In this document: positions 5,192-45,223 of the stretch, one piece after another
Layout of the letters: every line of letters begins with the position of its first letter
Position numbering within the stretch: position 1 is the first letter of the stretch
From: a phage
Direction: 5' to 3' (one strand)
DNA: 64,000 nt
Sequence record: PX436236.1
The notes under the pieces: generated by a model
Told to the model about the DNA's origin: nothing
Databases searched by the model: none
The model's input: only the letters and a program-made list of their open reading frames with translations
Program-made: the position numbers and the translations under genes

Positions 5192-5226
5192 TTTACTCTC
5201 CTTCACTCTGTTGTTTTGATAGGTCT

Positions 5227-8287: not shown

Positions 8288-8323
8288 TTTATTCTCCAAT
8301 CACTCATTTGTTTTGATAGGTCT

Positions 8324-8352
8324 ATAGTATCACACCTATAGACCTTGTAAAC
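8324..8352 (-). promoter_or_regulatory. early promoter cassette (GTTTAC-N17-TACTAT) within palindrome
   Basis: ggtctatag...ctatagacc inverted repeat; upstream of 8102-8287. Confidence 0.55.
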
Positions 8353-8354
8353 AA

Positions 8355-8627
8355 TTATTTTAGATAAATTGCATACTTTTTATAACCAGCTGTTTCGTGA
8401 CGCAACCCTTTTTCATTAGCAAAACGTTCAATATTGTTAATTTGATTCTGGTCGAGTTCTGAAGTATCAAAAACAAAAAAGTTTCGCTTATTGCCTAAAG
8501 TTACGTGATTAGTCAAATCGATGTTATAGAGATGATTTATATCATCAATCATAGTCTTAACAGATTTGTTAATTTTTACTTCCTCATTAAGAATAGATTC
8601 AGCGATAAATTCTTGATAAGTTTTCAT
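8355..8627 (-). CDS. ipI: internal protein I-like (capsid-targeted), 90 aa
   Basis: N-terminus MKTYQEFIAE identical to the T4 IPI capsid targeting sequence; position next to 57B as in T4. Confidence 0.65.
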   Translation of the reverse strand: MKTYQEFIAESILNEEVKINKSVKTMIDDINHLYNIDLTNHVTLGNKRNFFVFDTSELDQNQINNIERFANEKGLRHETAGYKKYAIYLK

Positions 8628-8640
8628 TTTGATTTCCGTG

Positions 8641-8682
8641 CGGTTAGTTTGTTTACAAGGTCTATAGTATCATGCCTATAGA
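8641..8682 (-). promoter_or_regulatory. early promoter cassette within 17-bp perfect inverted repeat
   Basis: GTTTACAAGGTCTATAG / CTATAGACCTTGTAAAC separated by 8 bp; minus-strand GTTTAC-N17-TACTAT upstream of IPI-like gene. Confidence 0.6.
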
Positions 8683-8703
8683 CCTTGTAAACACCTTTTT
8701 AAA

Positions 8704-9396
<693 letters not shown>

Positions 9397-40682: not shown

Positions 40683-42242
40683 ATGAAAAAGAATGCATTA
40701 GTTCAAAAATGGTCCGCTCTGCTGGAAAACGAAGCCCTTCCTGAAATCGTGGGTGCTTCTAAACAAGCTATCATCGCTAAAATTTTCGAAAACCAGGAAC
40801 AAGACATCCTGACTGCCCCGGAATACCGTGATGAAAAAATCTCTGAAGCATTTGGTTCTTTCCTGACCGAAGCTGAAATTGGTGGTGACCACGGTTATGA
40901 TGCTACCAATATCGCAGCTGGCCAGACTTCTGGTGCTGTAACTCAGATTGGGCCGGCAGTAATGGGTATGGTTCGTCGTGCTATTCCTCATCTGATTGCT
41001 TTTGATATTTGTGGTGTTCAGCCTCTGAATAACCCTACCGGCCAGGTATTTGCCCTGCGCGCAGTTTATGGTAAAGACCCTGTCGCTGCTGGCGCTAAAG
41101 AAGCTTTCCACCCGATGTATTCTCCGGACTCTATGTTCTCTGGTCAGGGTGCTGCTGAATCTTTCGAAGCACTGGCTGCAAGCAAAGTTCTGGAAGTTGG
41201 TAAAATTTATTCTCACTTCTTCGAAGCTACCGGTGCTGCACACTTCCAGGCTGTTGAAGCCGTAACCGTTGATGCTGCTGCTACCGATGCCGCTAAACTG
41301 GATGCCGCTGTTACCGCTTTGATTGAAGCTGGTAAGTTGGCTGAATTGGCTGAAGGTATGGCTACTTCTATCGCTGAACTTCAGGAAGGCTTTAACGGTT
41401 CTACCGATAACCCGTGGAACGAAATGGGCTTCCGCATCGACAAACAAGTTATCGAAGCTAAATCCCGTCAGCTGAAAGCAAGCTATTCTATCGAACTGGC
41501 ACAGGACCTTCGTGCAGTACACGGTATGGATGCAGATGCTGAACTGTCCGGTATCCTTGCTACCGAAATTATGCTCGAAATCAACCGTGAAGTTATCGAT
41601 TGGATTAACTACTCTGCACAGGTTGGTAAATCTGGTATGACCAACACCGTTGGCGCTAAAGCTGGTGTGTTTGACTTCCAGGACCCGATTGATATCCGTG
41701 GTGCTCGTTGGGCCGGTGAGAGCTTTAAAGCCCTTCTGTTCCAGATTGATAAAGAAGCAGCCGAAATCGCTCGTCAGACCGGTCGTGGTGCTGGTAACTT
41801 CATCATCGCTTCCCGTAACGTAGTTAACGTACTGGCTGCAGTTGATACTTCTGTAAGTTATGCAGCTCAAGGTCTGGGTCAAGGTTTCAACGTTGACACA
41901 ACCAAAGCAGTATTTGCCGGTGTTCTTGGTGGTAAATATCGCGTTTACATCGACCAGTATGCACGTTCCGATTACTTCACCATCGGTTATAAAGGCGCTA
42001 ACGAAATGGACGCAGGTATCTACTATGCTCCGTACGTTGCACTGACCCCGCTGCGTGGTTCCGATCCGAAGAACTTCCAACCGGTAATGGGCTTCAAAAC
42101 TCGTTACGGTATCGGTATCAACCCGTTCGCTGACCCTGCTGCTCAGGCTCCTACCAAACGTATCCAGAATGGTATGCCTGACATCGTTAACAGCCTTGGT
42201 CTGAATGGTTACTTCCGTCGCGTATATGTTAAAGGTATCTAA
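40683..42242 (+). CDS. 23: gp23 major capsid protein
   Basis: 519 aa (T4 521); biased codon use (stop-free antisense frame). Confidence 0.95.
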   Translation: MKKNALVQKWSALLENEALPEIVGASKQAIIAKIFENQEQDILTAPEYRDEKISEAFGSFLTEAEIGGDHGYDATNIAAGQTSGAVTQIGPAVMGMVRRAIPHLIAFDICGVQPLNNPTGQVFALRAVYGKDPVAAGAKEAFHPMYSPDSMFSGQGAAESFEALAASKVLEVGKIYSHFFEATGAAHFQAVEAVTVDAAATDAAKLDAAVTALIEAGKLAELAEGMATSIAELQEGFNGSTDNPWNEMGFRIDKQVIEAKSRQLKASYSIELAQDLRAVHGMDADAELSGILATEIMLEINREVIDWINYSAQVGKSGMTNTVGAKAGVFDFQDPIDIRGARWAGESFKALLFQIDKEAAEIARQTGRGAGNFIIASRNVVNVLAAVDTSVSYAAQGLGQGFNVDTTKAVFAGVLGGKYRVYIDQYARSDYFTIGYKGANEMDAGIYYAPYVALTPLRGSDPKNFQPVMGFKTRYGIGINPFADPAAQAPTKRIQNGMPDIVNSLGLNGYFRRVYVKGI

Positions 42243-42258
42243 GATATAACCTTATTAT

Positions 42259-42276
42259 GGGAGACTTCGGTCTCCC
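42259..42276. terminator. bidirectional terminator hairpin between gp23 and convergent ORF
   Basis: GGGAGAC-TTCG-GTCTCCC; same stem in opposite orientation at 3776-3793. Confidence 0.55.
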
Positions 42277-42291
42277 ATTCTTGTTTCTGTA

Positions 42292-42573
42292 TTATGCAAT
42301 CTTAACTCGGCGGTTGATGATATCACGGAAGTCAATACGATTTTCTTGGATTTTCAGCCAGTTACCAGATTTGTCTTTGGTATGGGTAGAGTATTCACCG
42401 TTCCACCAGAAGTCGGTAGCATAAGCCATGGCTTCGTATTTCTTAACTAAGGCATTCACTGCATTACCATTAGGATTGTTACCGAATTTTTCTACCAGAG
42501 CTTTGATGTCTTTATCAAGAGCGGAAAGAGTAGTACGAATAAAGTTTAACTTGTTCATTTTTAATCTCCTCAT
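42292..42573 (-). CDS. hypothetical small protein (93 aa) at the position of T4 segD
   Basis: ATG start; own GTTTAC/TACTAT early-type promoter; convergent with gp23. Confidence 0.5.
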   Translation of the reverse strand: MRRLKMNKLNFIRTTLSALDKDIKALVEKFGNNPNGNAVNALVKKYEAMAYATDFWWNGEYSTHTKDKSGNWLKIQENRIDFRDIINRRVKIA

Positions 42574-42587
42574 GTTTTGATAGGTCT

Positions 42588-42617
42588 ATAGTAACATGTG
42601 AGAATCTTGCTGTAAAC
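42588..42617 (-). promoter_or_regulatory. early promoter cassette (GTTTAC-N18-TACTAT) inside late capsid gene cluster
   Basis: Same gataggtctatagta core; upstream of minus-strand ORF 42292-42573. Confidence 0.55.
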
Positions 42618-42623
42618 AACTTT

Positions 42624-42631
42624 TATAAATA
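42624..42631 (+). promoter_or_regulatory. late promoter (TATAAATA) for gp24
   Basis: TATAAATA ~29 nt upstream of ATG 42660. Confidence 0.65.
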
Positions 42632-42659: not shown

Positions 42660-43943
42660 ATGGCAAAGATTAACGAATTACTGCGCGAGTCAACAACTAC
42701 TTCCAGCAACTCATTGGGTCGCCCTAATCTTGTTGCTTTGACCCGTGCTACAACCAAATTGATTTACCGTGATATTATCGCCGAACAACGTACTAGCCAG
42801 CCTATTGCTGCACTGTATGGTGTCAAATATCTTACCCCTGATAATGAATTTAGTTTCCAGACAGGTGCCTCTTATGGTGGTGAAGTTGGTTCTAAAGACC
42901 GTGAAACTATCCCAGAACTCACAGATAAGGCCCAGGCGATTGCTCAGGGTGAATATTTCAAGTACCAGAATGTGGTTTATAAGGCTCTTAAAGCAAGCCC
43001 ACTCGCGTCCACTAGCGCCACAGAATTGGCTGATGCTCTTCAAGAAGGTTTAGTGTCATTAACATGTCGTCTGGTTCCTGATGCTGCCCATACCACTAAA
43101 TTTGAAGCGAGTGATGTAGAAATCTCTGATGCTGTATTCCAGGTTAATAAATGGAATGCTCCGGTTAAGACCCGTAAATTGAAGACGGCTTTGACTGTAG
43201 AATTAGCGCAGGATATGGAATCAAATGGCTTTGACGCGCCGGCGTTCTTAGAAGACCTCTTGGCTACAGTAATGGCAGATGAAATTAATAAAGACGTTCT
43301 GCAATCTCTAATAACCGTATCCAAACGTTATAAAGTTACTGGTGTATCTGATAACGGCATCATCGATTTGTCTTATGACAGTGCTCCTGAATCTGCACGT
43401 AAACTTTATGAACTCGTTTGTGAGATGAATTCTGAAATCCAGAAAACTACTTCTTATTCTGGCACGTTTGTTGTGGCTTCAAGTCGTGTGGCTGCAATGC
43501 TTGCAGGTTCTGGCTGGTTAAAACATAAACCCGAAGATAATAATTGGCTTCCGGAAACTGCATACGGATATTTGTTGAATGGTCTGCCTCTGTTTTGTGA
43601 CGTTAACAGTCCATTAGATTATGTTACCGTTGGTGTTAAAGAGAATTACGGCGGTAATGAAGTTGTCGGTTCTATTTTCTACGCTCCCTATACCGAAGGC
43701 TTAGATTTAGATGACCAAGAACACGTCGGTGCTTATAAGGTTATTGTTGACCCGGATTCATTACAACCTTCTATTTCTCTGATGGTTCGTTATGCACTAT
43801 CAGCTAACCCGTACACCGTGGCTAAAGACGATAAAGAAGCTCGTGTTATCGATGCAACCAATATGGATTTAATGGCTGGACAGAGCAATATGTCTTATCT
43901 GGTTGGCGTTAAACTTCCGGCAATTATTTACGAGGCTGATTAA
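42660..43943 (+). CDS. 24: gp24 capsid vertex protein (copy 1)
   Basis: 427 aa; late promoter upstream; gp23/gp24 fold family. Confidence 0.9.
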   Translation: MAKINELLRESTTTSSNSLGRPNLVALTRATTKLIYRDIIAEQRTSQPIAALYGVKYLTPDNEFSFQTGASYGGEVGSKDRETIPELTDKAQAIAQGEYFKYQNVVYKALKASPLASTSATELADALQEGLVSLTCRLVPDAAHTTKFEASDVEISDAVFQVNKWNAPVKTRKLKTALTVELAQDMESNGFDAPAFLEDLLATVMADEINKDVLQSLITVSKRYKVTGVSDNGIIDLSYDSAPESARKLYELVCEMNSEIQKTTSYSGTFVVASSRVAAMLAGSGWLKHKPEDNNWLPETAYGYLLNGLPLFCDVNSPLDYVTVGVKENYGGNEVVGSIFYAPYTEGLDLDDQEHVGAYKVIVDPDSLQPSISLMVRYALSANPYTVAKDDKEARVIDATNMDLMAGQSNMSYLVGVKLPAIIYEAD

Positions 43944-45223
43944 TGTCTAAGATTGTAGACCTAATTAAAGAATCCACATTGACGGCTGCCAACTCGGTTG
44001 GCCGTCCTGCTCTTCTTTCATACACCCAAGCAACTAATAAACGAATCTTTAAAGCCCTAGTTGCTGAACAAAAAACAAATCAACCGGTTGCTGCTCTGTA
44101 TGGGGTACGTGTACTGAATCCTGACGACAAAATGACTTATCTTGGTGGAGCAACATTTGCGGGCCAGATTGGTATGACGGAACGTGAAAATATTCCAGAA
44201 TTTACTGATTCATCTACAGCTTATGCGGTCGGTGATATGTTCCAGTTTGAAAGCGTAGTGTTTAAAGTTCTAGAAGCATCTCCTTTCGCCGGAACCACAG
44301 AAACCAACCTCAGCGAAGTTATTTCTGAAGCAGTGGCAGCCGGCCATATCCGTATGGTGTCGGATGCTGCTATTACTTCTAAATTTGAACAAGGCCATCC
44401 TGAAATTGCTGAAACCGGATTCCGTATCGACAAATGGCAATCTGAAGTTAAATCACGTAAACTGAAAACTTCATTGACAGTCGAATTAGCCCAAGACCTA
44501 GAATCTAACGGGTTTAATGCTCCTAATTTTGTTGAAAATCTGCTAGGCATTCAAATGGCAGAAGAAATTAATAAGGATGTATTACAGTCATTAATTACCG
44601 TGAGCTCTCGTTTTAAAGTCCAGGGTGTTTCTGAAAAGGGTGTATTAGACCTTACCAACCCTCGCTACGATAATGCCCAGGACCGTGCTCGCACATTATA
44701 TTATTATATGTGTGAGATGAACTCTGCCGTCCAACGACAGACTTCTTTTGCCGGGACTTATGCAGTAGCTAGTTCTCGTTGTGCTGCTATTCTCGCCGCC
44801 TCTGGTTGGGTTGAGAAAAAGGAAGACCAGGACGAATTGGCTTATGGTATATTAAAGAATGGCCTACCACTTTATGCTGATATGAATAGTCCATGTGATT
44901 ATGTTATTGTTGGTGTAAATGCCCAGATGGGTGAAGGACAGACGGTCGCATCTTTATATTATGCGCCTTATACGGAAGGTTTGAATGTGGTTGACGAAGA
45001 AGGTGATACTTCAGTTGGTGAATTTAAGGTTATTGTTGACCCGGAAAGCTTACAACCTACAGTAGCATTGCTTGCTCGTTATGCATTGTCTGCAAACCCT
45101 TATACCGTCGCTAAGGACGATAAAGAAGCCCGCATTATTGATGGTTCTGATATGGACAAAATGGCTAATCAAAGTCAATTGAGTTCTTATCTCGGCGTAA
45201 AATTACCGCCTTTAGAAAAATAA
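43943..45223 (+). CDS. 24: gp24 capsid vertex protein paralogue (copy 2)
   Basis: 426 aa; roughly half-identical to copy 1 by eye, collinear. Confidence 0.85.
   Translation: MSKIVDLIKESTLTAANSVGRPALLSYTQATNKRIFKALVAEQKTNQPVAALYGVRVLNPDDKMTYLGGATFAGQIGMTERENIPEFTDSSTAYAVGDMFQFESVVFKVLEASPFAGTTETNLSEVISEAVAAGHIRMVSDAAITSKFEQGHPEIAETGFRIDKWQSEVKSRKLKTSLTVELAQDLESNGFNAPNFVENLLGIQMAEEINKDVLQSLITVSSRFKVQGVSEKGVLDLTNPRYDNAQDRARTLYYYMCEMNSAVQRQTSFAGTYAVASSRCAAILAASGWVEKKEDQDELAYGILKNGLPLYADMNSPCDYVIVGVNAQMGEGQTVASLYYAPYTEGLNVVDEEGDTSVGEFKVIVDPESLQPTVALLARYALSANPYTVAKDDKEARIIDGSDMDKMANQSQLSSYLGVKLPPLEK

Follow-up and report, generated by a model that had tools for sequence, protein, structure and literature searches.

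A putative early-expressed ORFan cassette between the capsid genes gp23 and gp24 of a JS98/Bp7-type T4-like phage

The slot between genes 23 and 24 of bacteriophage T4 is occupied, on the minus strand, by segD, which encodes a free-standing GIY-YIG homing endonuclease (PMC2988022). The phage DNA analysed here (the window; 64,000 nucleotides of record PX436236.1) carries another small minus-strand open reading frame (ORF) in the same slot, preceded by an early-type promoter, and this raises the question of what such a gene is doing inside a late capsid module and how it came to lie there. The 701 bases around the ORF are 100% identical to those of Bp7, QL01, vB_EcoM_FB and LQ5 and 96% identical to those of JS98, which places the window by sequence with the JS98/Bp7-type T4-like coliphages (Straboviridae, Tevenvirinae, Dhakavirus). 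The features of the locus, as annotated or predicted from the sequence, are as follows.

40683-42242, plus strand: gp23, major capsid protein; left flank, convergent with the ORF
42257..42278, folding on both strands: GC-rich hairpin ATGGGAGAC-TTCG-GTCTCCCAT; gp23 intrinsic terminator on the plus strand, 14 nt past the ORF stop on the minus strand
42292..42573, minus strand: longest ORF, 93 aa from the first ATG, from the ORF list
42292..42558, minus strand: 88-aa ORF including the stop (MNKLNF...RRVKIA), a phrog_6003 member, from the comparison of starts and homologues
42566..42571, minus strand: Shine-Dalgarno GAGGAG, 7 nt ahead of the ATG at 42558, read from the sequence
42574..42593, minus strand: 20-nt block TACTATAGACCTATCAAAAC, comprising the -10 hexamer (42593-42588), the predicted start site and the leader
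42588..42617, minus strand: T4-type early (host sigma-70) promoter; GTTTAC, 18-nt spacer and TG-T-TACTAT extended -10
42617-42612, minus strand: -35 element GTTTAC, the T4 early consensus
42624-42631, plus strand: gp24a late promoter TATAAATA, divergent, 6 nt from the early -35 and 29 nt upstream of the ATG at 42660
42660-43943, plus strand: gp24a, vertex protein; right flank, divergent from the ORF
43943-45223, plus strand: second gp24 paralogue, directly after gp24a

With both gp23 and gp24a on the plus strand, the ORF lies on the minus strand of the gp23-gp24 slot and converges with gp23, as a sequence-only reading of this DNA had described. The two tandem vertex-protein paralogues of the window (42660-43943 and 43943-45223) have a mutual identity of 55.5%; a gp24 pair is also present in IME08 and VR7, while Dhakavirus AnYang has a single gp24, so that the duplication is variable within the genus. 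The QL01 annotation had hinted at an additional gene between 19 and 20, but it is absent from the window, where gp18, gp19 and gp20 follow in normal order.

The ORF had been read as 93 codons long. Its presence on the minus strand (42292..42573) holds, but its length does not: translation almost certainly begins at the ATG at 42558, for a product of 88 aa and not 93, because this codon has GAGGAG 7 nt upstream, because all homologues in the alignment begin MNK, MTK, MKK or MIK at the equivalent position, and because the start is annotated there in QL01, JK45 and VR7. The upstream ATG of the 93-aa version overlaps the GAGGAG and has no Shine-Dalgarno of its own, and the GAGGAG is kept in IME08, JK45 and PhAPEC2.

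Homologues of the ORF were found in 234 phage records (tblastn), and its product matches the profile of phrog_6003 with E = 6.8e-50 (residues 1-88 against profile positions 1-88 of 90). Kin in this family at the same locus are JS98 ORF173c, VR7ORF190c and RB69ORF188c, all full-length homologues. Family length is held at 84-93 aa even at 27-33% identity; the residues M1, K3, F6, L11, L14, L21, G26 and N30-G31-N32-A33 are invariant, as are N35, A45, W51, Q71 and I80. In four comparisons (Nei-Gojobori; against IME08, JK45 and VR7) dN/dS was 0.08-0.11, with dS running from 0.23 to saturation. An apparently divergent C-terminus, where tblastn coverage ended at residue 72, was an artefact, the translations being collinear to the end. 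The conservation on which the standing of the gene depended is thus present (234 records, phrog_6003, dN/dS of about 0.1), and the comparisons mark the ORF as a genuine gene under purifying selection. Annotations of more than 200 phage genomes already include it as a hypothetical protein.

The encoded protein of 88 aa has a mass of ~10.2 kDa and a pI of 9.6 and is hydrophilic (GRAVY -0.65). An AlphaFold2 model built from an 11-sequence alignment (pLDDT 83.7, pTM 0.67) has helices at residues 3-25, 31-48 and 77-87, with residues 49-76 forming a long aromatic, polar loop; the protein is therefore predicted to be a soluble, basic three-helix bundle, in which a VNGNA turn is conserved and the loop is aromatic. 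It had been described as a protein without known function, and the homology and structure searches agree with this, returning no described family or fold. Pfam gave DUF5380 only (E = 0.11) and no GIY-YIG domain; NCBIfam, PADLOC and PDB sequence searches gave no match; Foldseek of the model against the PDB gave E > 2 throughout; and among known defence and anti-defence families there was neither a sequence nor a fold match. The sole return of a BFVD structure search was an uncharacterised family member with 40% identity. Our literature search found RB69ORF188c, phrog_6003 and NP_861878 mentioned in no paper.

HMMER over 1.84 billion representative proteins recovered about seven true relatives, all of 84-90 aa. 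The long matches P0017 and P0020 are repeat-protein artefacts; P0021, a 160-aa metagenomic protein, has last ~35 residues identical to family residues 35-62 and an unrelated N-terminus, and is probably the product of a chimeric or mis-assembled contig and not a real fusion. The most distant relatives are found beyond the T4-like phages, in dissimilar surroundings: one in the Vequintavirinae phage ABPH49 amid a run of small hypothetical genes, one in a contig where it follows a lambda-J-type tail-tip gene, and one in an array of small early-type genes beside T7-0.6-like and g100-like ORFs. Judged by these contexts, the family is a small, phage-restricted and horizontally scattered ORFan.

The promoter ahead of the ORF was compared with the early promoters of T4, in which the -35 consensus is GTTTAC at positions -36 to -31 (Nolan 2006, PMC1524935). 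The ORF promoter has this -35, a TAnnnT -10 at the T4 early spacing of 17-18 nt with TG, and a UP-like region, in the T4 early orientation; the A/T-rich TTTATTTATAAAAGTT lies upstream of the -35, and GAGGAG and ATG follow downstream. A generic promoter scan also returned the site (TTTACA-17-TACTAT with extended-10 TG at 42616..42588, minus strand), although that scan was noisy, with 2 matches against 2.9 expected in the ORF stretch. The more specific pattern GTTTAC-N16-18-TAYTAT occurs six times in the window, always on the minus strand, against 0.14 expected, and the motif GGTCTATAG/CTATAGACC pointed out earlier also occurs six times, against 0.22 expected. The 20-mer TACTATAGACCTATCAAAAC is found exactly at 5213, 8310 and 42574 (0 expected), and each of its other copies is followed by a Shine-Dalgarno and a small ORF; these lie in the early accessory region, close to the homologues of ip, trna.x and 57B. 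The claim that a copy of the same early promoter cassette lies at 42588-42617 is therefore borne out by GTTTAC-N18, by the extended -10 and by the TACTATAGACCTATCAAAAC block common to two other early genes. From the promoter type alone, we infer that the ORF is expressed early by host sigma-70 polymerase.

Two other minus-strand promoters of the window, at 8305-8360 and 8645-8700, contain perfect inverted repeats between the -35 and -10, with arms GGTCTATAG/CTATAGACC (10 bp) and TGTTTACAAGGTCTATAG/CTATAGACCTTGTAAACA (18 bp). As DNA these segments fold at -10.6 kcal/mol (z = -5.6) and -17.2 kcal/mol (z = -8.2) respectively, and by this structure they are PeSL-like elements in a Dhakavirus. The palindrome of the 8645-8700 promoter is such that GTTTAC appears on both strands. 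Just downstream of it, on the minus strand, is a 151-aa ORF (8704-9159); going by how QL01 is annotated in the collinear stretch, it is probably the 57B homologue. 57B belongs to the anti-CBASS Acb1 family, and the shared promoter cassettes would therefore serve accessory or counter-defence genes.

The early promoter had further been described as standing back to back with the gp24 late promoter, and so it does, with TATAAATA 6 nt from the -35. The block TTATTTATAAA around the late promoter is invariant in six phages, and the AT-rich late-promoter block would double as the UP region of the ORF early promoter. This divergent early/late pair, and with it the early promoter, is kept by position in Bp7, IME08, VR7, JK45 and PhAPEC2, and in T4, where it stands upstream of segD. 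The T4 candidate (NC_000866, ~107,253-107,281, minus strand) reads TTTACA-17-TATTAT with TG (10/12), lies just upstream of segD and is a positional homologue of the Bp7 ORF early promoter; like it, this sigma-70-like promoter is back to back with the gene 24 late promoter. Previous work could not identify a segD-specific promoter and assumed segD transcription to be vanishingly low (Edgell et al. 2010, PMC2988022); the predicted site is a candidate for the promoter that T4 segD seemed to lack.

At the other end of the ORF, a bidirectional terminator had been proposed. One part of this stands, in that the hairpin at 42257-42278 is common to both genes and its 9-bp stem folds on both strands (-18.5 kcal/mol on plus, -16.4 kcal/mol on minus). 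The other part does not, as the T-run follows the hairpin on the plus (gp23) strand only, while the ORF strand continues with AUAAUAAGGUUAUAU. On the ORF strand the hairpin, which is also conserved in JK45, is probably a 3'-end stabiliser or partial stop and not a full intrinsic terminator.

Comparison of the gp23/gp24 slot across T4-like phages gave four states.

State 1, empty: fPS-90, gap of 83 bp, with the terminator and TATAAATA only
State 2, segD only: T4 and ~53 records, minus strand
State 3, ORF only: Dhakavirus Bp7, QL01, JS98 and AnYang; Gaprivervirus VR7; Mosigvirus PhAPEC2
State 4, ORF and segD: 38 records, including Dhakavirus IME08, and JK45; one minus-strand unit

The PhAPEC2 ORF is annotated as "similar to RB69ORF188c", and across Dhaka-, Gapriver- and Mosigvirus the amino acid identity of the ORF is 33-95%. 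No early promoter is present in the fPS-90 gp23-gp24 gap, and a short empty span was also found in the sampled Tequatrovirus (about one and a half dozen records of 467, at 95-99% identity to T4) and in the sampled Klebsiella T4-like phages; from this sample the slot is empty in most Tequatroviruses. Since the gap of most Tequatroviruses is without the early promoter, the unit of promoter and ORF is an addition to the late module, in keeping with the earlier description of an insertion: the sampled Tequatroviruses hold the terminator and late promoter only. The accompanying view of the ORF as an accessory gene in a late structural module is likewise upheld by a unit that combines an early promoter with a conserved ORF and is absent from these phages. 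We consider it probable that the locus is a moron- or PeSL-like early accessory 'ORFan cassette', that is, a self-contained early unit in the Dhakavirus gp23/gp24 slot.

The relationship of the ORF to segD is different from that first supposed. T4 does have segD on the minus strand of the same slot, but the two genes are not strict alternatives, as 38 records carry both; by this count of records they are additive occupants. Where both occur, segD is downstream of the ORF, as a precise ~665 bp insertion between the ORF stop and the hairpin: the uninterrupted site in Bp7 reads TAA-taca-gaaacaagaatggg, against TAA-aat-[segD]-aaacaagaatggg in JK45. In IME08 and JK45, segD begins 3 nt past the ORF stop without a Shine-Dalgarno of its own, and this short gap and missing Shine-Dalgarno suggest that segD is translationally coupled to the small ORF.

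Such an arrangement could mean that the small protein is a partner of SegD (a specificity, regulatory or self-protection factor), the two forming one mobile element of which Bp7 would have the version minus the nuclease. The 3-nt spacing on one strand, with no Shine-Dalgarno ahead of segD in IME08 and JK45, fits this reading, as do the 38 records with promoter, ORF and segD together and the passage of that unit as a whole across genus boundaries. It is nevertheless improbable, given that an adjacent segD of the IME08/JK45 type is missing from about 196 of the 234 records that bear the ORF, that T4 has segD without the ORF, and that the distant homologues in Vequintavirinae and siphovirus-like contigs adjoin no nuclease; the clean segD insertion is also what one would expect if a free-standing homing gene had landed next to a gene already in place.

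On the mobility of the unit, JK45 is informative. Its record is labelled Tequatrovirus, and a Tequatrovirus that had gained the ORF was ruled out, the gp23, gp24 and rnlB flanks being 95-99% identical in nucleotides to Mosigvirus PhAPEC2. Identity between JK45 and PhAPEC2 collapses between the gp23 stop and the gp24 start. Against Dhakavirus AnYang, in contrast, the promoter region of JK45 is identical at 97/97 positions, the ORF is 97.3% identical and the terminator 90%, whereas the flanks reach only 71-83%; the JK45 segD is 90% identical to that of IME08. The whole gp23-gp24 intergenic unit of JK45 (terminator, segD, ORF and promoters; JK45 segment 2898-3987) is of Dhakavirus type. These alignments indicate that a promoter-ORF(-segD)-terminator unit replaced the resident Mosigvirus allele in JK45, the breakpoints coinciding with the capsid gene ends, and as a Dhakavirus-type unit in a Mosigvirus-like backbone it means that the cassette moves between genera. 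Such a replacement is the outcome expected of homing-nuclease-stimulated recombination with co-conversion, in which the nuclease would have had a role.

In vertical comparisons the ORF diverges much faster than the capsid genes beside it. Between VR7 and Bp7 it is 60% identical in amino acids, against 97% for gp23 and 88% for gp24; between PhAPEC2 and Bp7 the corresponding values are 33%, 83% and 69%. Comparison of GC content with the window gave no compositional sign of foreign origin for the ORF (39.0% against a window mean of 39.8%).

A capsid-related job for the protein, as an early regulator or chaperone for gp23/gp24 or as a counter to host sensing of the major capsid protein, would account for the constant position and orientation of the ORF in Dhaka-, Gapriver- and Mosigvirus and for the AT-rich block that its early promoter has in common with the gp24 late promoter. 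We regard this as a poor candidate on several grounds: the predicted timing is early and from the opposite strand; the ORF is absent from most Tequatroviruses and Klebsiella T4-like phages despite homologous gp23 and gp24 (the gene ends on either side of the slot are 80-98% identical to T4 in nucleotides); elsewhere among phage families the homologues have no capsid gene beside them; and in JK45 the Dhakavirus allele sits in a Mosigvirus-like backbone with a gp24 only 68% identical. That the ORF is incidental and the locus acts through RNA or promoter, by antisense read-through into the gp23 3' end past a minus-strand hairpin without a U-tract or as a UP-element or insulator on a gp24 late promoter co-conserved 6 nt away, is highly improbable given dN/dS of ~0.1 with synonymous divergence up to saturation, a length that stays at 84-93 aa, and residues that stay invariant, even where identity falls to 27-33%, a conserved Shine-Dalgarno, and homologues in unrelated genomic contexts.

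Under the favoured explanation of an early accessory cassette, host sigma-70 RNA polymerase would, within minutes of infection, initiate at GTTTAC-N18-TGTTACTAT and transcribe a leader of ~22 nt with a strong Shine-Dalgarno, followed by the 88-aa ORF. The polymerase would then reach the gp23 hairpin from its back side, where the hairpin would probably serve as a 3'-end stabiliser or partial stop. The comparisons show that the promoter-ORF-terminator unit is swapped as a whole between genera via recombination in the flanking conserved capsid genes, and that in some lineages the segD homing endonuclease has been inserted precisely between the ORF stop and the hairpin.

ORFan cassettes with early promoters have been described before (Arbiol et al. 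2010, PMC2839356; Nolan et al. 2006, PMC1524935). Like the PeSL and ORFan cassettes of RB49 and phi1 (PMC2839356), the unit joins a strong early promoter of the sigma-70 type, AT-rich in its upstream region, to a Shine-Dalgarno and a small ORFan; its promoter sequence is repeated (the 20-mer at three sites), and the unit is exchanged between related phages. Unlike a PeSL, the ORF promoter has no stem-loop, as 42574-42625 folds at -0.5 kcal/mol (z = +1.3). The Bp7-type unit also occupies the conserved late capsid module instead of a hyperplastic region, and its exchange is bounded by capsid genes and not by PeSL repeats. PeSL cassettes have elements on both sides and mini-circle excision, whereas the ORF is flanked by promoter-like sequence on one side and by the gp23 hairpin only on the distal side. 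The ORF promoter was therefore rejected as a canonical PeSL, having no stem-loop and one promoter-like flank only.

Other parallels can be drawn with lambdoid phages and with T4. A moron of lambdoid phages is a gene with its own promoter and terminator between two late-operon genes. The unit described here resembles one in being an autonomous promoter-gene-hairpin arrangement between two structural genes, absent from close relatives and of another expression class than its neighbours; it differs in that its base composition is not distinct (39.0% against 39.8% GC, as above), that its terminator is borrowed from the neighbouring gp23, and that its expression would be early in a lytic phage and not from a prophage. 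It departs from the T4 segD locus, with which it has slot, strand and promoter position in common, in its product, for the Bp7 protein is no nuclease and has neither GIY-YIG nor SegD similarity. From phrog_6003, JS98 ORF173c, VR7ORF190c and RB69ORF188c there is no difference, these being its own family; none has a described function.

As to what the protein may do, we would guess, at somewhat less than an even chance, that it is a non-essential early effector binding a component of the host, of a defence system or of a competitor phage. This guess follows from the class of gene: early, small, non-essential in relatives, fast-evolving, mobile and scattered among unrelated phages. A stronger version, which we advance only tentatively and hold to be rather unlikely, is that the 88-aa protein is a new effector of early host takeover, anti-defence or inter-phage competition with an undescribed small fold, spread among T-even genera as hitch-hiking cargo of SegD. 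If true, such hitch-hiking would show concretely how a homing nuclease can drive accessory-allele replacement across genus boundaries.

As a feature, the cassette is an ordinary and already described kind of mobile accessory gene; the new points are a well-documented cross-genus transfer of such a cassette and a conserved early promoter at the position of T4 segD. With four states (empty, ORF, ORF and segD, segD) in one slot between two essential capsid genes, the locus is a clean and well-bounded example, and makes a convenient system in which to ask whether SegD-type nucleases drive the replacement of neighbouring accessory alleles, and what the target of a fast-evolving early protein is.
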